DNA of 58,887 bases, the filler included, from Asterionella formosa (taxonomy: Eukaryota): NCBI GenBank assembly GCA_002256025.1. It is 10 parts of 10 records of this genome, joined end to end, with 100 filler letters (N's around TTAATTAATTAA, not from the genome) between each part and the next. Parts side by side here need not be neighbours in the genome. Positions count along the whole stretch, not along the records: positions 29,556 to 35,354 come from NKIB01012921.1; 9 more parts are not named here. The stretch is one strand, 5' to 3'. The translations under genes were made by a program, and so were the position numbers. The notes beneath the pieces were generated by a model, which saw only the letters and a program-made list of their open reading frames with translations, did no database searches and had not been told where the DNA came from. Positions 152 to 40,234 of the stretch are shown here, one piece after another (the first letter of the stretch is position 1; each line of letters starts with the position of its first letter).

Positions 152-428
152 TGTTGGAGAAATTATTTTAGGAAAGAAAAATCCCGGCATGAATTGCCTA
201 CTACATATTGAATCGAATGAATCAAAAACGAATATGGTACCAGAGAAAACTCGGAATTAGAAAACAATCTACTTCACCAGTAAAACCTATAATTCTACTA
301 AAACTCTTAAGAACGATTACAATCAATTACTGCAACATTGTTGTTCATATCTACAGCCCATTTGGTCCCTGACATGTCCTTACAGGATACAAGAAAGCAA
401 TAGAGGGCTTCGGGACGCAATTTCAAAA
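152..428 (+). repeat. 5' LTR
   Basis: Begins TGTTGG. By manual alignment it is about 93% identical to 4870-5149. The terminal CA is mutated to AA. Confidence 0.95.
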
Positions 429-564
429 GTTTCAGTAGAATTAGCCGGCCAGGAAGAGCTGCTGTAATATTACAATCAACAACAGGTGGACTGTTGAGAG
501 TGCGGAGACAAGATCTGAGGGTACCAGACCATCCAGAGTCTGAAGAAGTCGCACAAGGCGCATC

Positions 565-3500
565 ATGAGTGGCAAAGGAAAGTTTTCCAAGAAGGCTCAG
601 GCCAAGGGCAAGTTTCAAGCCAAGGGAGGGAGCAATATTGCTTCTCAAACCATCAAAAAGTCAGTTAATGACTATAACTACTACCTAACAGCAAAGCAGG
701 CATCTGATTATGAGACTACTACTGAGTACCTCATCAACTACATCAATAAAGTGTTTGACTATGGCAGTGACATAGGAATGGTGCTAAAGTTGGTAGAACA
801 ATTTATCACATCAGCATGGAAGCCAAGAATGCAAGTGAGCATTGCAACAACTTAAGAAGATCGTGCTGCAGAGAATCGGCAATATGAGATCAAGTTTAAG
901 GCAGATGATGACACCTACTACAGTAAAAAGGGTACAGGCCTACGAAAACAACAATACCAAGGCATATGCGTTGCTCTGGGAAAGATGCAACAAAGCCATG
1001 AAGAACAAGATCAAAGCAAGATCCAATTACAATTGGATCGAAAATAACCCAATACCATTGCTTATGGCAATTAAAGAACACGCATTGAATTTTCAAGAGA
1101 ATCGATATTCAATGCCAATTATTTTAGATGCAATGAGAACGCTTTTACATACAAAGCAAAAAAGGAGAAAGTCTACAAGACTACACCAAGAGGTTTCGGG
1201 TGGCATGAGATGTGCTCAAGTCACACATTGGAGGACCCATTATACTCACCAAGTTTGGTGAAGCCATGAAAAGGTAGAACAAGACAGTCATCAAGCTACG
1301 AGATAAATTTCGCAAACAAGCTTTCAGTCAATTTATGGCCTATTTATACCTCAACAATGCTGATAAGGCCAAACATGGATCAATTATGACCGGGCTGAAC
1401 ACTCAACAGTCACTCAGCAATTATCAATACCCAAAGAGTATCACCAAATCCAATAATGTTCTCAGTAACCACAGGTTCGACATAACAAATAAGCGCAACA
1501 GTCACAAGAAACCAGGAGATCACAATAAAGACAGGGAACAAAAGGATGCAGAGAAGGATGATGAAGATGTGAACTTATCGTTTGCACAGTTAGAAGGAAA
1601 ATGTTACTGCTGTGGAAGAGCCGGACATAAATCACCAACATGTCGCGATAAGAATAAACCCAAAGAGGAATGGGCGATCAACAAGGCCCAACAAAGCCAT
1701 GCACAGGCACAGGCTGCTACATTGGACACAAGTACGGTTATCTCTGTTAATTCCAACAACCCACCGTCATCACAAGCTTCACAACAAGCAAATGTCAATC
1801 AAGTTGGATGGGCGGGAGCTCATGTCAAACTGCAATTTTACCAAGCATCCGAGATGCGTGACTGGATACTATTGGATAATCAATCAAGTGTCACAGTCTT
1901 TTGCAATCCAAAAATGGTTGAAAACAATTAAATGTCAACCAATGGAAGCATGCACCTGGCCACAAATGGTGGATCCATGGTCACTATTATGAAGGCTGAT
2001 CTTCCACAATGGGAAGAAGTATGGTTTAATGAGAAGGCAATCACAAACATCTTCAGTTATGCCGAAATGGCAGATAGGTACAGGACTACGTATGATTATG
2101 AAAAAGACGATGCATTCATTGTTCATTTGCCTGACAAACCAGTTCGATTCGAAAGAATTGGGATGAACTTAGATGTTTTCGAGACTCCTACAACAATTAA
2201 GGCGGAGAATGGTGATCTAATGTTAAATACAGTTGAAGAAAACAAAACACTCTACACTGAACATCAATTTGAGAGAGCCAAGCGAGCTTGTAATCTATCT
2301 CATGCCTTGGGCACACCATCAATTAATGATTTCAAGGCTTTAATTCTTATGAATACGATCAACAATAATCCAGTGACTACCGATGATATCAAAATTGCAG
2401 AGAAAATTTTTGGACCTGACACTGGGACATTAAAAGGCAAGACAACTTGTTGCAAGCCACTGCCAGTCGTGAATGACTACATCGAGATTCCTAAAGAGCT
2501 TATCAGAGCTCAACGCAAAGTGACTCTTTGCATGGATGGATTGAAAGTGAATGGACAATCATTTCTTACAACAATTTCTCGAACATTATGTATAAGACAG
2601 CGCAATGGGTCAAGAATCAGACAGCAGATGTCTATCGAGATTCTTTGACTCAGGTATTCCATATTTACAATACCAGAGGATTTAAAATTACAACAATCCA
2701 CTGTGACAACGAGTTTCGACCTTTGATGGAACAAATTTCCAATAAATTCCAAGTCACTATGAACTACGCAAACCCACAAGAACATGTTCCTGAAGCGGAA
2801 CGAAATAATCGAGTGATTAAAGAACGCGTACGCGCAGCTTATCATCGATTATCTTTCAAACATTTGCCACGACTTATGATCAAGATTCTAGTCACAGAAT
2901 CTGCAAAGAAACTGAATTTCTTTCCGTCAATAACGGGATATCCCCATATTACAGTCCTTGTATGATTTTACATCAACGAAACCTGGACTATGCTCGACAT
3001 TGCCAGTATACATTTGGCACTTATGTCCAAGCACATGAAGAACCGGTGTTCTCAAACAATAATGCACCACACAGCCTAGATTGCATTTATCTACGCTACA
3101 ATGACAACAAGCAAGGAGGTAATGAATTATTACACCTACCTACAAATTCATTGATCACTAGACAAACAGTTACTCCTCTACCACTTACCCCAGCAATCAT
3201 AAATCAAGTACATGCGCTTGCTGTGCAGGAAAATACGCCAGACGATCTCAAGATATCTAATCAAAAGGAACAACTATTTTATGATAGTGCTTGGATTGCA
3301 GGAGTGGATTATGATAATGAAGCATTTGAAGATGCACAAGATGAAGATTATGAAGATCAAGACGCTAGTGACAACGAAAGCAATGATGAAATTCTCAGAG
3401 AAGAAGACTATGATGAAATGAATCCAGATGAAATGTATGAAGCAATACAGCTTGAATTAAACAACAAGATCCAAGAGGATGACCCTGAACCTGACGAGGG

Positions 3501-4847
3501 CAACAATGAGAATAATATTGAAATAAATGCAGATGAAATCTAAGATGAGGATGAAGAACTGGCAAATGAAACTGAAAATGAAGAGGCAATGTTAGAAGTC
3601 AATCCAAGCACCACTGAGGATGACTCAGACCCAAATGTTAGAACTACAAGGTCTGGAAGAGTCTCAAGACCACCATCAAAACTTACTATGGTCCAAAATC
3701 ATTTGCATACCCAAGCACACTGTCGAGAAGAATACACGACTGATAATGCGAAAGTGATCGCAATGACAATGTGTTATATGAATGAGATGTTTATCGATAA
3801 AGAAGCATTCCACTTTGTTCAGTCATACAGCTTAAGAAAAGTCCTCAAGAAATTTGGCCAGAATGGAAGAGACGCTGCGTATAAAGAAATGAAACAACTA
3901 CATGATAGAGTTGTATTTGAACCGACTAGGATTGAAGACCTAACAGAGATCGAAAAGCCACGCGCAATGGAAAGTCAAATGTTTTTGGTTGAAAAAAGAG
4001 AGAAGAGTATTAAAGGCAGAGCTTGTGCCAATGGCAGTTCGCAACGTGAATGAATGGAAAGCGATGAAGCAGCTAGTCCTACTAGTACTACCATGACGGA
4101 ATCTTTCATGATAACAGCAAAAATTGATGCAAAGCAAATCGTGATGTTATGACAGCAGATATACCCAATGCATTTGTGCAATTGGATATCGATGAGAAAG
4201 AAAAAGGGGTACGAATCATTATGAGGATTGAGTGTTCACTTGTCAATATGTTGACAGAACTCAGCCCCAAGACTTATGAAAAATATGTTGTTTATGAAGG
4301 AAACAACAACAAGGTCCTCATGAATTTCTTGAAAGCAACTCAGAATGAGGTTGCATCAATGAGTGCTGATGAAACTCAGAGCATTAAATGGTATGTTGAT
4401 GTGGCGTTTGCTGTACACAAAGATTTAAAAGTCTCTCAGGAGCTACGTTGTCACTTGGAAATGGAATTATTTGTTCTATGTCTATGAAACAGAAAGTGAA
4501 CATTAGATGTTCGACTGAAGCAGAATTGGTTGGTGTTGATGACATTGTATCAAAAGTGTTGTGGACGAAATTATTTATTGAAGCACAAGGACACAAGGTG
4601 ACTACAAATGTCATTTACCATGACAACACTAGCGCAATGAAGCTAGAAGAAAATGGAAAAGCAAGTTAGGAAAACGCACGCAACATTCCAACATCAAGTA
4701 TTTTTTTACATTACTGATCTTATTGAAAGAAAGGAAGTACAAATTAAGTACTATACAATGGATGCAATGTTAGCAGACTACATGACAAAACCACTGGTTG
4801 GAACGAAATTTATTCATTTTCGTCAGCAAATTATGAATTCAAAGTGA
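565..4847 (+). pseudogene. copia gag-pol polyprotein, with frameshifts and stops
   Basis: Motifs spread over many frames: Zn knuckle CYCCGRAGHKSPTC, protease WILLDNQSS, integrase IHCDNEF...PEAERNNRVIKER, RT N-part KGRACANG...ADIPNAFVQ, and RNase H WYVD...STEAELVGVDD...ADYMTKPL. Confidence 0.95.
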
Positions 4848-4869
4848 GCATCCGTGTCCAGCAGGAGTG

Positions 4870-5149
4870 TGTTGGAGAAATTATTTTAGGAAAGAAAAAT
4901 CCCGGTATGAATTGCCTACTACATATTGAATCGAATTAATCAAAAACGAATATGGTACCAGAGAAAACTCAGAATTCGAAAACAATCTACATCGCCAGTA
5001 AAACCCATAATTCTACAAAAACTCTTGGTAACCACGATTACAATCGATTACTGCAACATCGTTGTTCATATCTACAGCCCATTTGGTCCCTGATGTGTCC
5101 GTACAGGATACAAGAAAGCAATAGAGGGCTTCAGAATGCAATTTCAACA
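4870..5149 (+). repeat. 3' LTR
   Basis: TGTTGG...TTCAACA followed by the TSD ATTGA. Confidence 0.95.
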
Positions 5150-5816
5150 ATTGAAGGATGAGCGAATCTAAATTTAAATAAATGAGGATATGGTTTACCT
5201 ATGTAGGCTACCGGTACCGGTAATTCTTGTATGTGTACATAACAAATGCCTATATACTCCGAGGACATGGTAAACAGCTATTTTGTCCAAAAAAGGTCGA
5301 TCTGTTGACACTTTCACGTACGGTATATCGGTATGTATCGATCATACCTGTACAAATGAATGTTCAGTGTCGCTCGTATGCACATAGAGAAGCAAGCGCT
5401 ACGAGGTACCAGGTACATGCTCAGCTACAGATGGATCGTTTCAGATTTGTCAACCAAGATGTAGAGAAATTCGTTACAAAACGTGTTATTCGACGTACCG
5501 TATAGAGGTTCAAAGCAGTTTTTCGGTGGAACCAGGTACCATGACAATGACATCCCCTGATGCTTCTAGTGCCACCAATGTGAATTTTAGTTTGAATGAA
5601 AATGAAGCTCTTGCCGCTGACAACCCCGTGCCAAGGCAGAGGCGAGGATCGCCGCTTGTCGTTGTAGCTGTAAGTGCCATCCGAAATCACAGTGTTCCGT
5701 TGTGTCCAAAGCTAAATACCTCATGCCTTCCAGGTGCGATCCCAAGAGGCCGCAAATCGCTACAGTGGGAGGCTCGTCCATTACTTTCGTCAGCTCTGCT
5801 GTCGCTCGTCGTCCCA

Positions 5817-5916
5817 NNNNNNNNNNNNNNNNNNNNNNNNNNNNNNNNNNNNNNNNNNNNTTAATTAATTAANNNNNNNNNNNNNNNNNNNNNNNNNNNN
5901 NNNNNNNNNNNNNNNN
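5817..5916. other. artificial contig linker N44-TTAATTAATTAA-N44 (also at 11730-11829, 17642-17741, 23551-23650, 29456-29555, 35355-35454, 41242-41341, 47125-47224, 53007-53106)
   Basis: Identical 100-bp spacer with stops in all six frames. The flanking contigs are sorted by length. Confidence 0.99.
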
Positions 5917-10400: not shown

Positions 10401-11833
10401 GAATGAACATCCATTGCTTGTCGTATTAGTTTGAGAATCGCGTTTTATAGAAATTATTAATATAAACTATATAGCAAAGCTATTACTTTGATTCATTTTG
10501 CGACTGTAGAATTAAATTGAGATGTTGATTGGTTACACATAATTATTTGTTTGACTAAAATATATATTTGATTAACCTTGAGGTATTAGTGTGATCAAAA
10601 TTAAGATTAAATGGGAGTGAACAAACAGAATTAATGGTAGTCAGAGTGAAGAATATTTGTGAACGGACATTTTGCGAATTGTAGAGAAAAGTAGCGTACT
10701 TTTGAGATTATTCCTGAACAAATTTTTCTTTGTTTCGCCAAAAAATATTGTCAGTTGGCCCAAAAAATTATGTGGGTTTCTAAAATGATTATGGAAGTTG
10801 TCAAAACCTTTTAATTCACTCCATTCATATACATTGTATGATGCATCATATTTTTTATGTGATGTCATACCCTTAAATTATGTACATAGCTAAATTTGTC
10901 ATATTGGGCCACCAAAATAATTAATTTGGGTGATCATATTTTTTGGCAGCTGTACCAGTAATCAGCATTGTAGATGTAGTTAAGAAAGCCAAAAGAAAGA
11001 AACGAGTTTGAGGAGCTGCAAAGAAATGTCAGGACCGCAATGGGATCATTGCAACCTGATAACCATGAATTCGCGAGCGCATGACAAGAAAGTGGGCACC
11101 GACTGAATATGCATAATTTCGAATGGGGTCTTTGGCTAAAGAAGACGACCTGAGTTACCGGTACCGCTCTTGCTCCAGGAATGCTCGATGACGACTACCG
11201 GTACGGACATTCGGTCGACTTACAGAAGTATGTCCGTACATATGTGGTACAGTTGGTTCGAATGGGGGCGTCTCGCAATCGAGGTACCGGTACCGGTATT
11301 AACCATCATTTGCTTTGAAAACTTTTGAACGATGATTGCTTACATACGTATATGTATGTCATATACAATATGGAGCTATTCAAATACTGCACGGTAAATC
11401 AATAACACAAACAATTGTCACCGTTGCTTCCGTTTGTTTCAGCTGCTGATGTTTCGGAGCCTTCATCACACAAGGATTTACCGGTACTTGTTCATCGATT
11501 GAAGAGAAGAGCTCTCGTATCAGCACACAGCACATCAATCGCAATGATGCAGGAATCGCAAGTGGTCCGAGGAACGGTAGGTCACCGAAATCATCTGAAT
11601 TATCGGACGCGAAGTGTTACACATAATCCATTAGCTAATACTCCCATGCAATGCTTCTTCGACGCAGTCCCCGCGCAGATCTTTCGGCACGGAGCTTACT
11701 TCCTCGGTAGTAGGAAACCGCTGCAGTCCNNNNNNNNNNNNNNNNNNNNNNNNNNNNNNNNNNNNNNNNNNNNTTAATTAATTAANNNNNNNNNNNNNNN
11801 NNNNNNNNNNNNNNNNNNNNNNNNNNNNNTTGA

Positions 11834-29555: not shown

Positions 29556-30026
29556 AGAGAAAGGTTCCCCACCAGCATTGGCAATGGCACAAAGATGTTT
29601 GATGCGGATCCATAAATGTTCAATTGGCGCCTCTGGTGTCCAAGGATCAGCCAAGCACATGCGATTAAGTTCTAAATCATCCGCACTCAATGTTGCTTAT
29701 GTAGATTCTAAGTGAGCAAGCAAGGTCAGAACAGTGATGTCTGCATATCCAAATGTAGCATCTTCCAGAACATTGTAGTAAGTTGGGTCAATGGCTGTTA
29801 GAATTTGTTGGCGGAGAATTTCACGGATTTGGGAGTAACGGCGGAATGCGTCAAGGGAGGTGTCAAAGAGACGGTTGGCAGCAGTGATTTGGGACTGTGT
29901 TGCAGTAGCACTGTGTGGCGGCTGGGTGCCGGGATGTTTGGGCGGTAAAAAGGGTTCACCAGCATGTAAAAGATAAGGAGCAGCAGCCATGACAATACCA
30001 AGGAAACCATTGGCACCACCACCACT
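29556..30026 (-). pseudogene. copia (CoDi-type) gag, downstream part
   Basis: SGGGANGFLGIVMAAAPY...HPGTQP...LRQQILTAIDPTYYNVLEDATFGYADITVLTLLAHLESTY...WTPEAPIEHLW, a typical diatom copia gag N-region. Confidence 0.85.
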
Positions 30027-33000
30027 CGTCTGTAAATAGAAAATATCATGAAAATATGATCAAGGGTATCGTACGCTAAGCGGCACAGGATTTTCACATA
30101 TATGATAGTTTTTCGATCAAAAATATGATCAATGTATCATATAATTATGATCATGCAGTAAACTTTCACCGAGCTTGAAGTATGATGAGACTATCATAGT
30201 TATAATACCATTGCATCATATAATTAGTTAAACATAGTCATATGATGTGTATACTTTTGTCATACATCTATCTTAGCATGATTGTAATTCTCATCGATAT
30301 CACTGTCTAAAATAAGATGAAATTGATCGAAATTTAGAACTATATTTTGCTAAGAATGGTTCTATGATTCTATCATATCTTAAGTGGCTACAGAATGTTC
30401 TACAATGCTCTCATCGCAATGATTGTTGGTGCCGCTTTCACTTCCACCTCCCTCCCCCCCCAATCCAATTCTGAAGGTTGTTGTACTGGTTGCCTTGCCG
30501 TTGCTCCTCTGTTTGCTTTGTTTTTTCCATTTACTCCTGACGGATCTGAGTTTGCATTCACGCATTTTCCTATTACTATTTAATCCGTTTCGTTGTCCCA
30601 ATCATACTAACAAAGAGAAGCAATTCATTGTTAGCTGTTCATGTTTTGCTTACACAACAACATTCATTTCGCTTCTATCTTGCTTCACTTACCACAAATT
30701 GAGGAAGTAACTGATGCATATTTCTGTAGAAGAATGTGTCAGTCGAAGATTGAATGAGAAGCAAAGTATCGATCAATAAATGGGCTCCAACACTGCTGTT
30801 TGTAACATACAAATACTGTTTGTCTACCATTATCCTGAAAGAAGCAACACATATGTGTCAGTTTTTCTAACAGTTGTGGATTGATCCAAAGATGGCTGAT
30901 AGGCAGCACTTACCGATTTCTTTTGTCCACAGCCATTGATGTTTGGCCAGCCACCAAATCGAAAAGTAGCTATTGAATCACTGAAAGGGGCGGGACGAGT
31001 CATTCCGTATTTGTTATCCAAGCAATTGATCATCTTGGCATTTGCTCTTGACAAACCGTGATGCTATGCACAGCTTGTTGATTCCGCCCTTCTCCATCAT
31101 ATTCACTCCTTCTTAGCCGCATGGTGTATTGTCACTTCAGTTGTTCGCATTATGTGTTGCTTGAGATCCTTCATTTGAGGAAGTGGATGCAGCATGACAA
31201 GGAACATGAAAGGCATCTGCTCTTGACTTACCATCAATTGATTCCGCCATTCTCTTCTAAGCCGCAAGTATCGCTCATTGTGCTTTATTATCACTTTCGT
31301 TTTCCGCGTCATCATCTGTGTTAATCCTTTAATTCAGGAGCAAAGTGTATGCATGACAAGGAACCACATGAAAACATGATTTCAAATGTTTCAGCCATGA
31401 ATACATATATATAAAGATTTGTAAGAAGTTTAAATGTATACATAGTTGAACATTTGCATAACTTTAAACCACTTATTATACAGCACATCCTGTGTATACT
31501 AATATCAATTTTGATTATACATAGTTCAAATATACACAATGCATGATGAGTTCATAGTTTTCCACGACCTGTTGAGTTTTTTTCAATTTTTTTGTGTGTC
31601 AATTCTTGTACCTACAAGTCAGTGGCTGATTTAATTAAGCCCCTTAATAAACAGGAGACGACAAATTTTTCAAATGGTCGAAATCATACATTTATGTATA
31701 TAGACATATTGACCAAAATTCATATGGCCTACCGGTAGTACTGTATAATTGCTGGTAATTACTTCTATCATGGAAATACCACAATAGTGCAGCGGAAAAC
31801 TGAATATGCTCATGTGTTAAGGATCATTTGATCATATTTTTAAGATCAATCAATCCTGATTCTTGGAAATAAATGTTGATCTTTCATTTTCTCATCAATG
31901 ACACCGTCTATCATATGATCAATATGTTATGATCAAAGGTATAGGATAAACGAATCTAAATTCATTGATTAAAGATCATAGTTTATACCGGAGTAGTTGC
32001 TCATGCATGCAACCCCTTCCCCCCTGTATACAGTATGGAAGTGATAACCCCCAAGCTACCAAATTTTTATGTCTTGTAAGAATTATCGCAGCATGCATGC
32101 ATACATGACTCCTACTGGTATAACCAATGCGGGAGTGATGACCACCAGACTACGAATCCTATAGGTCCTGTAGAATTATCGCAACATTGCTGCATATCTA
32201 ATGAAAGGTCGGGAGGAGTCATCCATGCACCTGCATAGTATGAAATATGGAAATGATCAAATATAGCAAGTCTACACAAGGAGCAGTGCATCATATATGC
32301 CCTGTTTTTTTAATTCCTATGAAATCTCGCTCTTGATCTGTTCTGCGCTTTTTCGCCACAATTGTTTTCATTGCCTGTTTCACTGGACAGCATTCGAATT
32401 GATTGTGCTTTGAACGAAGCAATGATCAAAGTCCACCCCATTGCAGAATGGTGAGTCTCACAACTAAGTATCAGCCAGTCGATTAAAATTGGACTGTCTA
32501 TTGTGCACCCTCGTTGTGTTTGTACTTGACTTGGCAGCTGTCAGCCAAGAGCAGCCATGGTATGCCACCGTTTATTGTCTATACAAGTTTCGAATGCGTT
32601 CAGCTATGATAAGTTTTGCTCCCCCCTCCTAAACACTATCTCACAACGCACCCTTGTCATAGATTTTTCTTTATCCTTTGGCTTCACAGGCCCAGGTTAC
32701 TCAATGCCTTCATCTGCAAGGAGTTCAGCCAAGCAGGTCCACGTTGGCGTCAAGAACACCTCAACCCCGATTTTCCTCACATGTTCCACCCATCGAATTC
32801 TTCATTGATGAAGTCAAGGGAGCTATAGTGACGACATCAGGTGGCGCAGGCTTGTGTATAGATTGATGATGCCGAAAGCAATGCTTCCTTTTCCAGTAGG
32901 TACCTGTTTGTCAACATTGTTTGGTTCAATCCATTCTTGTTCCCGCAAGGAGACCAGAAGCAATTATCCCTTTACTTCTCCTCCCAAGAACCTTCATTTC

Positions 33001-34339
33001 TCTTTCACAATTGTCCTGATGTTTGCAGAGCATTTTTAGTTCTTCCCTTTTGATTTTTCCACTGGTTTCGATCCCATTTGCACCATTCAATTCAAGAAAC
33101 AAGCAACTCATTGAGATTTCTGGAGGTCTCGGTCAGTGGCACCATAAAGCAACAATCAACAGATCATGGCGGCTGTTCTACATTTTCTGTAGCAAGTGAC
33201 ATTCAAGAAGGGACTGGGATCATTGGGAAGAAAAATTAGTAGGATTCTCTGGCTGTGTTTGCCCCCGCCCGTTTGGCAGCCATTCTACCATTACTTCCTC
33301 TCAATCAATACAAGTATAGCTAATGAAAACCGTAATTAGATGAAATGTAACTTCCGGTTTCTAATATGTTACATTGTTGCACTACGACTGAAACTTGAAT
33401 CCATAAATGGGCATTCAACTTGTGCTTGCTTCTTGCATTTTTGCAGTATAGACTGGCTGGTGGGCGATAGGCCAAGCAAAGTGTCTCGCTGTTCATGAAC
33501 ATCTACAAGCTAGCTACTAGAGCTTTTGTCGAGGTTTGTGTCTGATACCCTACTACCAACTGCTGCCATCCATTGAAATATTCCAGATACATCAAAGAAT
33601 ACGCTCTTGTCTTTAAAGGTAAGGAACTAGAACGATGACAAAGAAAATCTAATGAGACATGAAAATTACGAAATCCAGAATCACTCTGTTACTATAAATA
33701 GACAGTCTCATGCTTCTTTGTGCATATCGCCTGCTATGCTGCGTTTCAATTCTTGATGTATTACGTTCTTGTTACTAGAGAGACGATGTTGTGGAGAAGT
33801 AGATTGTGCTGTTCTATAATGGATGTTGTTTAGCTATGATTGAGGTTGTAACACTGATTGATGCTCTGGTGACAGACCAGCCGGAAATTTTCGTCTTGTG
33901 TGATGAGCCATTTCGTTTTCATTGGATTTCTTTTCAAGCTCTTAATGGATTGCATAGTACGAACATACTTTACAATGTAGATGATGATTCATTGAAGACA
34001 TATGATGACTTGACCGACAAATGAAGATTTTATCACAAACATTCGTTCCTCTCGACATGGATGCTTTGTCGTTGTTGCAAGAATCAGAGTGAGGACTGGA
34101 GAGGATGATGAGCCAAACCACATAACTCTAACTGGTACATTATCCTACCAAGAAATTTAAATAAAGGAAACTAAAAGAAACAATACATATATTAATTAAA
34201 TTTCCATAGTCAAAAGGGTTACTATTTGAATTACAAGAGCATTTGTCAAAATTATTAGATGATATAACGAAAAATTATGATCAGATGATCATAATCCTAT
34301 GATGCATCATGGAAATATGATGGTTTTTATTTGCAGACG
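30027..34339 (-). mobile_element. TIR DNA transposon inserted in copia gag, 2-bp TSD (CT)
   Basis: The ends CGTCTGTAAATAGAAAATATCAT / ATGATGGTTTTTATTTGCAGACG are inverted repeats with TATGATC-rich subtermini. Removing the element and one CT restores the gag frame RSVHYTSGGGANG. Confidence 0.9.
32400..33300 (-). pseudogene. heavily decayed DDE-type transposase remnant
   Basis: Fragments across frames: IFLPNDPSPF, EGSWEEK..KG..REQEWIE, TSLRHLMS..LDFINEE, IGVEVFLTPT..AELLADEGIE, THHSA..DFDH. These resemble IS630/Tc1-like 'H.E.AGEGIEY.W' transposases. Confidence 0.6.
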
Positions 34340-34479
34340 CTGGTATAGTGGACAGAACGAGCGTTGGCAAAGAGATCCTTGTGAAGGCAGGTTACAGTGA
34401 GGGCTGTAGGTTTGCCCTCGATCGGCGTCAAGAGCGGATGAGGGAATGGGAAAACAGCGGAAACGATTGTATTCGTCAT
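34340..34479 (-). pseudogene. copia gag, N-terminal part
   Basis: MTNTIVSAVFPFPHPLLTPIEGKPTALTVTCLHKDLFANARSVHYT continues in frame into 30026 once the insertion is removed. Confidence 0.85.
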
Positions 34480-34616
34480 GGTGGAAGAAGGCCCGAGAGA
34501 CAGGGAAAGCGAACGGGCAAGCGGTTGATTGTTGAGAACAGTGCTGGTTTGCACCGCCGACAAGAGCCGCAACATCACAGGTGCGGACAAGAGAGAGAGA
34601 ACAGACATTGTAGTTC

Positions 34617-34680
34617 TGTTGAGGGGAACCTTGTCGTGAATAAAGGTGAACTACAATATTATGACTATTCTATTGCTGTT
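34617..34680 (-). repeat. 3' end (U5) of the 5' LTR of the second copia element (distal LTR boundary undetermined)
   Basis: In element orientation it ends ...CCCCTCAACA, about 140 bp upstream of the gag ATG. Confidence 0.6.
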
Positions 34681-35743
34681 TCGAGTACATCGTTGTTAGC
34701 ACTCATGCATGTACCTAATCTGGTGGCTGCGCCGGTATGGTTCGTACGGCGCATGTATGGAGCATCATATGCAGATGATATCGATACATCTGATGTTGGT
34801 GGCAAGTTTTTGCTCCGGTCATGTATGTAATGATGCTTAACGGATATTCTACCGGTACCGGCCGGCAGTCATCTAGTCTACATACGTACGTGGTACTAAA
34901 AACAACCATGCATGGTTTAAGCTATGCTGTAACGCTTACTTTGAACACGTTATAATATTATCTCTGTAGACTCGGTATTATTTTTACGAGACCTGAAATG
35001 TTGAATTATATCGTTCACATATTCATTGATTTTACGTACCGTATGCCCGATTTCGTCCTCACAAATATAGTTCTCACTCTATCTTGCCTGCCTTTGCTCT
35101 ATTCGGGCTTGCAATAGGCAACGTTCGTCTTTCTTTTATCCCATCGTCTGCTGCTTGTTATGCTAGTTGAAGCGGATCGGTGAGTACAACAGTGAAATAC
35201 TGAATGTGGATTGTAGATCGTATTTATCGACTTTCCGATTTGATTGCTTCCGTGGTTTGTTTTGATCGCTTCCATCGTTGTTTGTCGTTACGCACTGTCG
35301 TTTTGTTTCGATTGTACATATCTACATGAGAACCAATGCATTTATCAATGACTANNNNNNNNNNNNNNNNNNNNNNNNNNNNNNNNNNNNNNNNNNNNTT
35401 AATTAATTAANNNNNNNNNNNNNNNNNNNNNNNNNNNNNNNNNNNNNNNNNNNNGAAAACCGTCGATGTCGGTTGCCAACTAGAGCAGGTATTCGAGCTG
35501 TTTTGCAGATTTGGTGGGATACTGGCAATGCAAGCTCGACTTGTGATACCATCACATTGTAGGAGATCGTTATTGGTACCGCAAAATGATTTTTGGCTTT
35601 TCAATCGACATTAAGTTGCAATAGATTCGATGTACTGATTTTATTCAATGCACATTACGCCTTACTTCTATTTCCTAGTCTTAATAGGCAGAGATGAATG
35701 ACGCAAGAAACATTGATTGCAGTGAAAACTATAATTGCCTCTA

Positions 35744-37695
35744 CAGTGGAGCCTCCCTCAAAGATACATAGTACCCTATAGGATAGGATACACCCTCTAT
35801 ACAAGATACACTTTTCTCAATGGAGCACGCCCAATTGGAAATCCTTATAAGGGACCCTCTCTCTATACGATACACCCATCCATTAAATACACTTGGATAC
35901 ACTTTTTCTATAATATCGGTTATTCTGATCTCTGTATAAGATAAGAACAAGCGCCGCACACTCTGCACTCAGTTTGAGTCAGTAGTTTTCTACTTTGTTT
36001 TCCGTGCTTTGATCATCTCAAATCAGTGATGTGGACTGACAATCTTCAGTATTATGTCATGCTTAAGCATGTAATAGAAGTGTCAGTAGTATACGTACCA
36101 CATCATCTTGCTTAGCGATGATCTGGTGGAAATATCACTTGTGACATTACTTGTTAATGACACTTTTTATAATAATTTTTAGTTATATCCTTTACTGAAA
36201 TGAACCTTGATCGTTTCTTGTCCATTTGCTTCCATTCTTTCACTCATTTCAATCTCCAAGATTCAGACATCTTCACCATTGGGAACTGAAGGAACTATTG
36301 TGAAGAGCATGTTGGATAGCAGCAATAGAGCTACTTGGTGAAGGGATAGTGTTAGAGAAGTTGCTTTAAACTTGCCATAAGCATTGGAAATGTTCAAAAA
36401 GCAAAGAAAAAGAAGGAGGACTTGCTGATGGAAGGAGAATTGATGCAATCAATGAAAATGGCTTTCCTTAATAGCGGTACGGAAATCAGCACAGTATTGT
36501 GGATATGGCTGGCTTTGTAATGCTTGCACAAATGGATATCCAATTAGTGGACCCATCATCCTACAAAGCAAAGCTTTTTCGATAGCCAAAGCATTCGAAG
36601 CAGATTATAATTTTAAGGCATCTAATGGCTGGCTTGAAAAATGGAAGAAAAAAGGCACAATGTCAAATCCTATGCTATTTGTGGAGAGTCTGGGAATGTA
36701 GACATTGATAAGGCTGAAGAATTGATCTGGTTTGTGTGATGGATATACCCCAGCTGACAATTTTCAACATGGATGAGACTGGATACTTTTATCATGCTCT
36801 CCCTAATTCAAAGCTCAATTAAGTATTGAAATCATGCAAAGGAGGAAAATTAGCAAATGATCGAGTTACAGTTGCTTTGACATGCACTGCAGCTGGGGAA
36901 AAGCTGCAGCCGCTCATAATTGGGAAATGCAAGAAGCCTCAATGTTATCGAAACATTGATTTGAGCCGCCCTGGAGTTGTGTACAAGTCAAGTAGCAAAG
37001 CATGGATGACAAATCCTATTTTCAATGAGTATCTATTGGATTTGAATGCATACATGGCTTCTCAGAACAGGAAGATTTTTTGTTCTTAGATAACGCCCCT
37101 GTTCACATTGTTGATGAGGAAACAAGCTCAAGGCTAACATATGTAAAGGTTCAATTCTTCCCTTCAAACTTGACAAGTTTGTTGCAACCGTTAGATGCTG
37201 GAATCATTAGAAGTGTGAAAGCTCTTTCCCGTAAGCAGCAAGTTTTGCAGTTATTAAAATTTATTTAAATGGGAGAACATGCCGCAGATCTGGCTAAGAA
37301 ATTGCAGGTTATTGATACAATGAAGTATATGGCTACATCCTGCCTGTGGAAGTGTTGCAACTGAAACAATTCAAAAATGCTTTGAAGCATGTAGGTTTGA
37401 TAAGAATGTGATGACCGAAGAATGTGTATCAGTACCAGAGGAAACTGAAAATGAAGTGGAGGAACTGATGGAGAGGCTTGGAGAAGTTGATGTTCATTAT
37501 GTACAAGATTGCATTGGCAAATACTATGCAATCCCATGTGCTGAATTCTTAATTGCAAATTTTGTTGCTGAATATATTGATGTAGGGGATGAAAATGATG
37601 ACAGTGCCTTGGATAAAGGCGGTATCATGGCAGCAATCAGTGATGCGTCCAACAAGTTTCCTATAGAATTTTCAGTCTACTTTGTTCATTCATAG
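35744..37695 (+). mobile_element. Tigger/pogo (CENP-B-like) DNA transposon, decayed, right end missing
   Basis: TA|CAGTGGAGCCTCCCT terminus with GATACAC subterminal repeats. Transposase remnants: PISGPII, FKASNGWLEKWK, FNMDETG, CKGGKLANDRVTV, KAWMT, LDNAPVH, TSLLQPLDAGIIRSVK. Confidence 0.9.
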
Positions 37696-37699
37696 AGAT

Positions 37700-40234
37700 T
37701 ATAGATGTTTGCTCTGAATAATAATTGTTGTCGTTGATCACCCAACAGAGACGCATCGCTGTTGGTAAGTCTGTCAAAAGAAGCAAGGAGCACCAACCTC
37801 AAGTGAAAAATCAGACGGATTCACAGGACTAGTAGCAGGAGGGTTAGGGTTGAACAATAAGTCAATGGACAAGCGACGTCAAAGGAACAAGAAAGCGCGA
37901 ATAATCAGATAAATGAGGATTGATTGAAAGTGGGCGACATAAGATTGGTAGACTTGGGAATGTCTGGCGCAGTACCAGTCCAACAGAGGGCATCTGCATG
38001 AGTGTTATGCCCAAGGGACAATATAACATCATCATTAACAATCAAAGACAAATTATTATCGACCGACCAAGTGACATGAGAGTCATCACAAGTGGTAGCA
38101 ATAAATCCAAACCTTGTGAATTGAGGAACAAGAGCATTTTTTCAATTTGAGAGACAGTTTTGCAAGCCAATTTCGCTGTAGGACTCTTAGTGTCCTCAGT
38201 GAACTTCACAGTTGGTGCAATAGCAACAGCAGTGGGATCACAAGCAATGTGAGTAGCACCCGTGTGCGTTTTAACCCAACATTTGCACTTGGTGCACCAG
38301 AAAAAATTTGTGTCATGCCGGAAGATCATTGTTGGAGCACCAGCAGGTGGAGGAAGGTGCGTCCACTTAGTAGGACTTGGACAATTGTTTGCTTCTTATG
38401 TGCCCTTTCTTTCCACAATGATAGCAGCTGCTATTAGCAAGTTTAAAGGTGACAGAATCATCAGGAACTGCAGTGCCAGGTTTGATTGAGTTGCGGAGGG
38501 ACATCAGCTCTGCAACAATGATGGCTTGATATGCAGCATCGGAAGAAGCCTGGAAAGTGGCAGGGAGGGAGTCTGGATGAGACTTGAGAAGATTTAAGCC
38601 AACAATCCAGCGTCCATTTTCAAGTAGACGCTTGTAGTTGCGGAGAGCGATGTTACACAATGAATTTACACCAAGATCTGTTGATTGGAAGCGAAGATTG
38701 CAGCATTGTCTTTTCCAATGAGGCGTTTTTCTTGGATGTCAATTTCTTCAGAAAGAACATGAAATGCACTGCGAAAACCTTCAGTGCTGCAAAATAGAAC
38801 TTTTGAACAAGAATAGTAGAAGCCGTTTAATGAATGGAACCAACAATCTGACAATTTGAGGTTCTGAAACTTGGAGTGAGCGAGTATCGACCATGAGTTG
38901 AGCAGATCCAGAAGTAACATCATCAACAAGATCTAAGAATAACAATAAACCAGGACCTTGATTTCCATATGATGCAAGATGTGCCCGAAGTCCAAATAGA
39001 ATTGATTCTTCAACAGCATAGGACACAATTATATTCCACAAATGTGAAGCTTGTTCATCGGAAACTTGAGCACAAGAAAGGACAGAGGCAGGAGTTTCAA
39101 CGCCTAATGCATCAAGAATAGGAGCAGGTTCTGGTGCAAGGCAGTGATCAATGTAAGCCTATGCTTCAGTAAATGAGATGCGTGTGTAGTTTGTACTCAT
39201 GTCCCAAACATTTCCTTCATAGTCTGGAGCATGAAAGAAAGTGTCAACTCCACAGTTTTAAGCATCAAGGAGAAGAGCTTGACAAAGTCCACTGAGAGTG
39301 TAGTCCTTGAGAGGATCATAAGCATTGGGTCCCCGGTAGAGTCGTTTAGGTTCTTTATTTCATTATTCGAACAGACTGCGTCGTTCTGTAGCATCAACAA
39401 TCCGAGTTTGATAACAAGGTGACCACTGAGGGCGGAGGGTTACAGAAAAATCAGTGTTAAGGGTTCCAACGGAGTAACCAGAACCTACAAGGCGATCGAT
39501 ATCATGGCTGTCCAAACTTGGTAGCCATTCTTGCAACAGAAAAGAAACGAAGGAAGAGAGGAAAGTGAAAAAGAATGTAATCAGCAGAAAGAAAGGAAGA
39601 GCTAGTCGAAGAAGACTACCGATGGAAGCAAAGAAAATGAACGAAGGAAGAGCTAGTCGAAGAGGACTACCGATGGAAGCAAAAAAAATGAAAGAAGGAA
39701 GGGCTAGTCGAAGAAGACTACCGATGATGGAAGTGAAGGAAATTAAAGAAGTATCTAGAAAGAATTGAAGGGTAGTCGAAGAATACTACCGATGGAAGTA
39801 AAGGAAATGAACGAAGGAATCAGAAACAAGAAAGGAAGTGCTAGTCGAAAAAGACTACTGATTGAAGAAGCAGCAGCAGCAGATGAAGAAGAAGAATAAA
39901 AGAAATATTATGTTGGAAGGTTTGGGCTCAATAACCACTTGAAAGTGTTATGGAAACTGTAGATAATTGAATAATAGTAACATAAATGAAGACTTTTAGA
40001 CTCTATGTTTCAGAACAAAGTGAGCTAAATGTTAAAGGATTTAAGTAGAAGCTAGGAGTTGTCACCAGTTGACAACGACGACAGTCAATTTGAGAGAACG
40101 CAAGTTAGTAATAGTGGAGTGTCCACAATGGGCAGGTTGACCAGCATTAACTACAAAAGTCATGCTGTGGGAACCAAATGTCTGGAGAAATTGGTATTTA
40201 ACTGGTACTACTAGCTAGTGTCTATCCTTGTTCA
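37700..40234 (-). mobile_element. third copia element: LTR, PBS, leader and decayed gag (pol absent); boundaries approximate
   Basis: PBS TGGTTATTGAGCCC at 39925-39938 on the minus strand, close to the GGTTATGAGCCC copia type. Gag motifs GPGLLLFLDLV, CYHCGKKGH and WCTKCKCWVKTHTGATH. Confidence 0.75.
39593..39865. repeat. ~51-bp tandem repeat, about 5 degenerating units
   Basis: aaggaagagctagtcgaagaagactaccgatggaagcaaagaaaatgaacg at 39593, 39644 and 39695, plus degenerate copies. Confidence 0.9.

Follow-up and report, generated by a model that had tools for sequence, protein, structure and literature searches.

Does a copia-like long terminal repeat (LTR) retrotransposon of the diatom Asterionella formosa prime its own reverse transcription? 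The question is raised by one junction in a stretch of 58,887 nucleotides (nt), filler included, of GenBank assembly GCA_002256025.1, which is called the window here. The window consists of ten contigs, each about 5.8 kb long, with N44-TTAATTAATTAA-N44 spacers between them. It should be noted that the window is not a single locus, and that distances or 'neighbours' across the spacers (5817-5916, 11730-11829 etc.) are meaningless. The junction lies in the sixth contig (29556-35354, NKIB01012921.1), where the element runs on the minus strand. Our sequence analysis suggests, with a probability of about 0.65, that it is the junction between the 5' LTR and the primer-binding site of a dead copy, and that the element would prime its own reverse transcription in the manner of Tf1. 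The features on which this reading turns are the following.

34617..34776, minus strand: 5' LTR of the copia-like element, equal to positions 8-167 of a 167-base pair (bp) LTR, with the first 7 nt (TGTTAAT) missing
34665..34667, minus strand: TAG that ends the pol frame when the LTR is in 3' position, 5 nt upstream of the primer arm
34659-34648, minus strand: candidate self-primer arm ATATTGTAGTTC, LTR positions 125-136, invariant in the aligned LTR copies
34647-34643 and 34632-34628, minus strand: inner hairpin ACCTT/AAGGT inside the 31-nt spacer (34617-34647)
34616-34605, minus strand: candidate primer-binding-site arm GAACTACAATGT, with a private G at 34606 that is A in three other copies

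Pairing across the proposed LTR end

On the minus strand the junction runs, in order, CATA, ATATTGTAGTTC, ACCTT, TATTCACGAC, AAGGT, TCCCCTCAACA, GAACTACAATGT and CTGTT. A sequence-only reading made earlier had placed two complementary arms at 34659-34648 and 34616-34605 with 31 nt between them, and the letters read exactly so. The pairing it described was borne out, the arms forming 10 Watson-Crick pairs, one G-U pair and one further A-U pair. The ACCTT/AAGGT hairpin that it had seen in the spacer is present and is part of the minimum-energy fold. That fold, computed with RNAfold, is the arm stem, at -14.4 kcal/mol against -6.6 +/- 2.4 kcal/mol in 200 shuffles (z -3.3), and none of the 200 shuffles folded as well. 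As a background for both strands of the window, a 10-mer with a perfect reverse complement at most 165 nt upstream was found at 112 of 112,492 positions, and a 12-mer with one at this distance at 36 of 112,452. A search of 34400-34800 against Rfam gave a single match at chance level, and no tRNA gene was found in the whole window.

The extent of the LTR was judged from other copies. Four metagenome contigs (L001-L004), which came from a gag-based scan that reached close relatives only, carry a gag gene 87-97% identical to that of the window, uninterrupted in all four, and their similarity to the window begins at 34776. The full LTR start, TGTTAATATC, stands after unrelated flanking sequence in L001 and L004, and after the polypurine tract GGTGAGGGTG in the 3' end of L001 and in L002 and L003. 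As three kinds of upstream context precede the TGTT start in these contigs, the 5' edge of the LTR is fixed. L001 contains a 5' LTR and the first 48 nt of a 3' LTR, which are 100% identical, with GGTGAGGGTG before the latter; in L002 and L003 the LTR lies between two stretches of internal sequence.

The other edge is placed at 34617 by the termini and by a step in coverage. If the LTR ends in CCTCAACA (34617), it is 167 bp long and has the usual short inverted termini TGTT/AACA, and AACA is found nowhere else nearby. Contig 6 was compared with four public runs as assembled contigs (X1, X3, X15 and X16, the last two being RNA libraries). From bin 34406-34599 to bin 34600-34793 the summed contig depth rises 2.8-fold in X1, 4.4-fold in X3, 7.1-fold in X15 and 1.3-fold in X16; such a rise would be expected if an LTR began around 34600-34620. 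Termini and depth speak, indirectly, for the LTR end that had been proposed from the sequence, and the junction of a 3' LTR with its flank, which would be the direct evidence for it, was not obtained. A complete 3' LTR, a 3' flank or a target-site duplication was not recovered, the 3' LTR of L001 stopping after 48 nt.

In L001, L002 and L003 the site that follows the LTR is GAACTACAATAT, a Watson-Crick complement of the LTR arm at 12 of 12 positions, which begins at the first base past TCAACA. The G-U pair of the window copy is therefore a private change, the three copies having A at this position, and L004, with T at the same position, forms 10 pairs, a mismatch and one more pair. The LTR arm is found once per LTR in each locus and is identical in the window, the 5' LTR of L001, L002, both copies in L003 and L004. 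It is unchanged in L004 even with that contig only 84-87% identical over LTR and leader. All five pairs of the inner hairpin are invariant across four distinct sequences, and five of the six variable columns in the 63-nt region are unpaired within the family. The fold z-scores are -4.9 for L001 and -3.6 for L004, and the outer stem is kept when the 195-nt leader is folded. Within its own family, then, the pairing is conserved, with no covariation. Only the post-LTR site varies (G in the window, T in L004) and the LTR arm does not, a pattern that fits a site which would be rewritten from the primer in every replication cycle.

The same layout in related families

More distant relatives (L005-L015) were taken from a scan of a prokaryote genome collection with pol alignments, where diatom contigs of the size of one element occur as contaminants of metagenome-assembled genomes (MAGs). 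A family was counted as testable when its contig covered the stretch that leads from the polypurine tract across the LTR into gag. This holds for the family of the window copy and for four further families, whose pol is 47-58% identical to its own. L006 and L010 were left out of the test, as were L007, L011, L012 and L014, which lack the interval from LTR to gag. L015 was rejected as a false match of bacterial appearance. L008, L005 and L013 were compared by script, and MAFFT did not align L008 in register. It was found that all five testable families have a perfect inverted repeat of 9-15 bp in the same place.

Own family (L001-L003): arms ATATTGTAGTTC and GAACTACAATAT, stem 12 bp, spacer 31 nt, preceded by TCAACA
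L008: arms CTTACTAGCAAA and TTTGCTAGTAAG, stem 12 bp, spacer 31 nt, preceded by TCAACA
L009: arms ATAATGTAGTTC and GAACTACATTAT, stem 12 bp, spacer 30 nt, preceded by TCTTTA
L013: arms TTAATTATTTACGTC and its complement, stem 15 bp, spacer 54 nt, preceded by TCTTCA
L005: arms ATGTAAATC and its complement, stem 9 bp, spacer 40 nt, preceded by TCAATA

L008, L013 and L005 have arms whose sequences are unrelated to those of the own family, and L009 is set apart from it by a single compensatory change, from U-A to A-U. The outer stem forms in the folds of all four relatives (z -3.2 to -7.7), and the spacers of L008 and L009 hold an inner 5-bp hairpin whose sequence is different from that of the own family. 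The gag-pol interior of the same loci served as a control of 30,708 nt, partly redundant since L001-L003 are one family. Here 28 inverted repeats of at least 9 bp, six of at least 10 bp and none of at least 12 bp were found, so that four of the five families have stems of a length (12-15 bp) that is absent from the control. The sequence-only reading had supposed that self-priming may be a lineage-wide trait of some diatom copia clades, and in silico this gains support from five of five families against no repeat of 12 bp or more in the control. As the post-LTR site differs between families and always matches the LTR of its own family, the partner would be the RNA of the element and not a common host RNA. 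The triplet TGG was found neither in the arm nor in the next 45 nt in any of the five families, which excludes a site for a tRNA 3' end. Across the families, the polypurine tract GAGGGTG and the TGT after it are conserved. In three of the five a YCATA-like motif stands directly upstream of the arm, which we take to be a possible initiator.

Two other contigs of the window had been brought into the comparison. In contig 1 an LTR pair (152-426 and 4870-5147, 92% identical, 275 bp) is present, and 15 of the 16 positions of 428-443 pair with 290-305 of the LTR, the exception being a C-A mismatch. The element (152-5147) is degenerate; a gag zinc knuckle and integrase-before-reverse-transcriptase motifs are recognized by eye, and it has no Pfam match. 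It was said to have a geometry identical to that of contig 6. The similar pairing stands, but the geometry is not identical, as it begins 2-3 nt past the CA of the LTR and not at the first base. That the two elements are unrelated was confirmed by the lack of protein similarity at E <1e-3, and on the same ground contig 1 was rejected as a member of the clade. As far as its sequence goes, contig 1 is a second, unrelated case with similar geometry. For contig 7 an ordinary primer-binding site had been noted as an internal contrast, and GTGGTTATTGAGCC is indeed there at 39938-39925. It lies 2 nt past a CA, begins with TGG and fits a tRNA-type site; presumably it resembles a segment of the initiator tRNA. 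The same contig holds frameshifted remnants of a pogo/Tc5-type transposase (36456-37265; HTH_Tnp_Tc5, DDE_1), which adjoin a minus-strand gag-like frame with a weak zinc-knuckle match (38370-38738).

More tentatively, and at somewhat less than even odds, we propose that self-priming by a Tf1-like hairpin with a minimal R-U5 is standard in a large diatom-specific Ty1/copia clade, contig 1 being a convergent case. If this is true, independence from host tRNA would be a recurrent, convergent strategy of diatom copia elements, and one by which they might escape any host defence that is aimed at tRNA-type primer-binding sites by means of tRNA fragments.

Other searches for relatives added none. The exact 31-nt LTR pattern had no match in the genome contig and viral contig collections. 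Viral contigs scanned with the gag piece and with alignments A4 and A8 gave no relatives, and neither did a genome contig scan with P0171. P0171, a protein record from Marinobacter, is another such element and points to eukaryotic contamination of prokaryote bins. The diatom copia elements of about 5 kb (L005-L014) were binned in MAGs whose labels include cyanobacteria, Variovorax, Sphingobacteriaceae and Nitrospirae.

How priming could proceed, and other possible roles for the stem

In self-priming of this kind the 5' part of the genomic RNA would fold back, and the LTR arm would anneal to the post-LTR site with the help of the small hairpin in the spacer. The RNase H of the element would then cut after the arm, and the freed 3' end would prime minus-strand DNA with a strong-stop product of about 31 nt. 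The R (repeat) and U5 (unique 5') segments would together measure about 43 nt in the own family and 42-69 nt across families. We infer the 5' end of the RNA, the RNase H cleavage and the priming itself from this arrangement. The pol frame of L003 (1292-5425) extends 119 nt into the LTR (5307-5425, equal to window 34776-34665). Because the frame enters the 3' LTR, most of U3 (the unique 3' segment) would be coding in 3' position. Since it ends at the TAG located 5 nt before the arm, the poly(A) site would have to be within roughly the final 50 nt of the LTR. Elsewhere the end of pol differs; the stop codon of L005 overlaps the arm, and pol of L008 ends ahead of the polypurine tract.

Several observations weigh against self-priming at this junction. 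No 3' LTR-to-flank junction was recovered for any family, so that all LTR 3' ends used here are putative; should they lie beyond the second arm, R-U5 would contain the entire hairpin. R could be no longer than about 31-43 nt, which is unusually short. The duplex is AU-rich, with 3 G-C among 12 pairs, and inside the own family there is no covariation, 11 of the 12 pairs never varying. With L009 included there is one compensatory pair only, and the covariation score that was observed is attained in 110 of 500 shuffles. The 9-bp stem of L005 has a length met about 0.9 times per kb in coding sequence and is not significant alone. The repeat of L010 is 8 bp long and ambiguous, because it is unclear whether it lies at a 5' or a 3' LTR, and L006 has no repeat of at least 8 bp in the 171 nt upstream of gag. 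The relatives are moreover contigs in bacterial MAGs, several of which look like assembly loops, and L005 has an exact terminal overlap of 141 nt. L002, L003, L005, L008, L009 and L013 run from pol through one LTR into gag. Such contigs could be assembly loops, tandem elements that share an LTR, or one-LTR circles.

The inferred LTR ends leave room for the view that the stem-loop has some other role (packaging, dimerisation, control of promoter or poly(A) site, or integrase recognition), with priming taking place elsewhere or otherwise. Conservation and covariation show that the pairing matters, not what its job is, and the fungal GalEa copia elements, for which such a role has been proposed, offer a precedent in a conserved hairpin at this place without a recognisable primer-binding site (PMC5445492). 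However, with the LTR end at its inferred place the second arm sits exactly where a primer-binding site is required, and the following 45 nt contain no other candidate site. The diatom stem also differs from that of GalEa, as its partner lies upstream in the LTR and its arm is not palindromic. We regard a purely structural role as unlikely. In another explanation a host RNA, such as an internal tRNA fragment or some other small RNA, primes in trans, and the LTR arm merely masks or regulates the site, as U5-leader interactions do at the primer-binding sites of retroviruses. Half-tRNA primers are known in copia elements (PMC6317226). Part of the arm may resemble the 5' region of some organellar tRNAs. 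However, the site differs completely between families and matches the LTR arm of its own family each time, so that a separate host RNA, mimicked by the LTR, would be required for every family. The absence of a TGG-type site in the five families and the chance-level Rfam result at 34400-34800 also speak against a primer in trans, which appears improbable, more so than a structural role.

Chance was weighed as well, in the form of a functionless inverted repeat beside a misplaced LTR boundary. Repeats of 9-10 bp are not rare, as the 28 in 30.7 kb of control sequence show, and the window copy by itself has only 10 contiguous pairs. This explanation would nevertheless have to account for the full 12-bp complement in three copies, for stems of 12-15 bp at the same position in four of five families when the control has none, and for arms that are unchanged in a copy as divergent as L004. 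We consider it hardly credible. Self-priming from the LTR arm is hence the reading that we prefer.

The element, its dead copy and known systems

Copia elements are the dominant transposons of diatom genomes. L003 has a gag of 362 codons, an in-frame TGA and a pol of 1,377 codons. Its pol has two Pfam matches, both below the curated cut-offs, SH3_retrovirus at 441-497 followed by RVT_2 (PF07727) at 914-1030, the latter with 20.9 bits against a cut-off of 31.6. By eye the translation shows, in order, a D-S-G protease (PR), the D,D,E core of an integrase (IN), a VVDD reverse transcriptase (RT) and RNase H (RH). The gene order of L003 pol is thus PR-IN-RT-RH, with the integrase upstream of the reverse transcriptase. 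A search with the RT-RH part gave at least 1,839 proteins at E <=1e-10, counted among 8,000 candidates scored. PF07727 is carried by 62 of the 120 relatives listed (53-76% identical), some of which are named 'Reverse transcriptase Ty1/copia-type'. Several are attributed by their sources to Fragilaria crotonensis, Cylindrotheca closterium, Nitzschia inconspicua and Fistulifera solaris. Comparison of pol with PDB sequences and NCBIfam gave nothing. The gag family has 1,024 representatives at E <=0.001, the family as a whole falls mainly in Bacillariophyta in the protein atlas, and Pfam assigned no family above threshold to 15 gag relatives. From the gene order, the weak SH3_retrovirus and RVT_2 matches and the presence of PF07727 in relatives, the element is classed, on its sequence, as a divergent diatom Ty1/copia-like LTR retrotransposon.

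The gag and pol genes are in one frame with a single stop codon between them (TGA at 1522-1524 of L001 and 1289-1291 of L003), and a single in-frame stop is found in all five families in which both genes are present, including L005, L008 and L013. This suggests that pol could be made by stop-codon readthrough. Readthrough of this kind is unusual for copia-type elements and is common to Tj1.

The window copy itself is dead, because its LTR is truncated by 7 nt, a transposon lies in its gag and gag has a nonsense codon. Its remaining parts and the adjoining sequences are as follows.

34340..34479, minus strand: start of gag (ATG 34479-34477, about 47 codons), whose translation matches the N-terminus of P0001
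29556..30024, minus strand: the remainder of gag as far as the contig reaches; at 29697-29699 a nonsense codon replaces the Tyr of L003
30025..34339, strand not assigned: non-coding insertion of 4315 bp, present in high copy number, which divides gag in two; its ends are imperfect inverted repeats of about 16 bp, with CT on either side
34777..35354, strand not assigned: unrelated high-copy repeat adjoining the truncated LTR, with loose contig ends at 34774 and 34776 and deeper coverage

P0001, a database protein of 164 residues which is 84% identical, spans both gag pieces without a gap. Contigs that skip exactly 30025-34339 exist in all four runs, two of them RNA libraries, and the 4315-bp block is therefore an insertion. 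Its terminal inverted repeats are CGTCTGYAAATARAAA and it has AT-rich subterminal repeats like ATATGATCA; probably it is a non-autonomous DNA transposon. At the 5' edge of the element, loose ends were observed at 34774 (X1, 71 reads, agreement 0.86) and at 34776 (X16). Other copies of the 34777-35354 repeat run on into different, well-conserved sequence, as seen at the X1 loose end (agreement 0.86). The repeat has no Pfam match, and it was rejected as a part of the LTR, since it is a different repeat and is absent from L001-L004. A search of the 22 reading frames of contig 6 against Pfam gave nothing above threshold, and an LTR pair was not found in this contig. The element family occurs in RNA libraries, since X15 and X16 have contigs across the uninterrupted gag junction and across the junction of polypurine tract and LTR, which is no more than a weak hint in favour of self-priming. 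The other large reading frames of the window belong to eukaryotic genes of ordinary kinds, among them ankyrin, DEAD helicase, XRN and RING genes.

The choice of primer is a lineage-defining trait of LTR retrotransposons. To our knowledge, the Tf1/sushi branch of Ty3/gypsy is the sole group for which self-priming is demonstrated, and the plant TAR lineage the sole copia group for which it is predicted. In Tf1 the primer-binding site is complementary to 11 nt of RNA derived from its own LTR and not to a tRNA, and RNA structure between the arms supports the pairing (PMC7175516, PMC4600332). Like Tf1 and Tf2 of Schizosaccharomyces pombe and Tj1 of S. japonicus, the diatom element has a site complementary to its own LTR and a structured spacer, and in the diatom families the distance from arm to site is 30-54 nt. 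Unlike the Tf1/sushi elements, which are Ty3/gypsy with the order RT-RH-IN, it has the order PR-IN-RT-RH and so is not a member of that branch.

Within Ty1/copia, self-priming is predicted for the plant TAR lineage, which includes Houba and Osr-1, by Neumann et al. 2019 (PMC6317226). There, self-priming is predicted from at least 10 bp complementary to the 5' LTR which start 0-5 bp after it. The complementary stretch measures 10 bp in the window copy, 12 bp in L001-L003, and in each case it begins 0 bp past the LTR end as placed here, and the TGG that marks a tRNA-type site at 0-5 bp after the LTR occurs in none of the five families. Unlike TAR, the element resides in a diatom and not in a land plant, and its gag is diatom-associated and without a Pfam model. 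GalEa elements have a Conserved Hairpin Site, a palindromic 9-bp sequence at the LTR junction with an internal partner 12-41 bp downstream, and their authors found no complementary sequence in U5 (PMC5445492). The diatom element departs from this definition, since its partner is located 31 nt upstream inside the LTR and its arm is non-palindromic. The CoDi elements of Phaeodactylum and Thalassiosira (Maumus et al. 2009) are likewise diatom-specific and divergent Ty1/copia, and it is to this broad assemblage that the family most plausibly belongs. A term search of the main text of the CoDi paper (PMC2806351) showed that primer-binding sites and tRNA priming are not discussed there. No report of self-priming in diatom or stramenopile elements was found in the full-text literature, a scope that excludes subscription journals and supplementary files, and the literature searched held no description of the replication signals of diatom copia elements.

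A conserved pair of primer and site would offer a simple sequence rule for annotating LTR ends and for classifying elements, and also a compact set of cis-elements with which a diatom retrotransposition assay could be built. It would further add a third, independent case to the question of why self-priming evolves, for instance to avoid dependence on tRNAs or silencing by tRNA fragments, the latter an idea taken from PMC7472051. In this diatom clade self-priming, which is known for Tf1/sushi and predicted for plant TAR, has clade-level support in silico.

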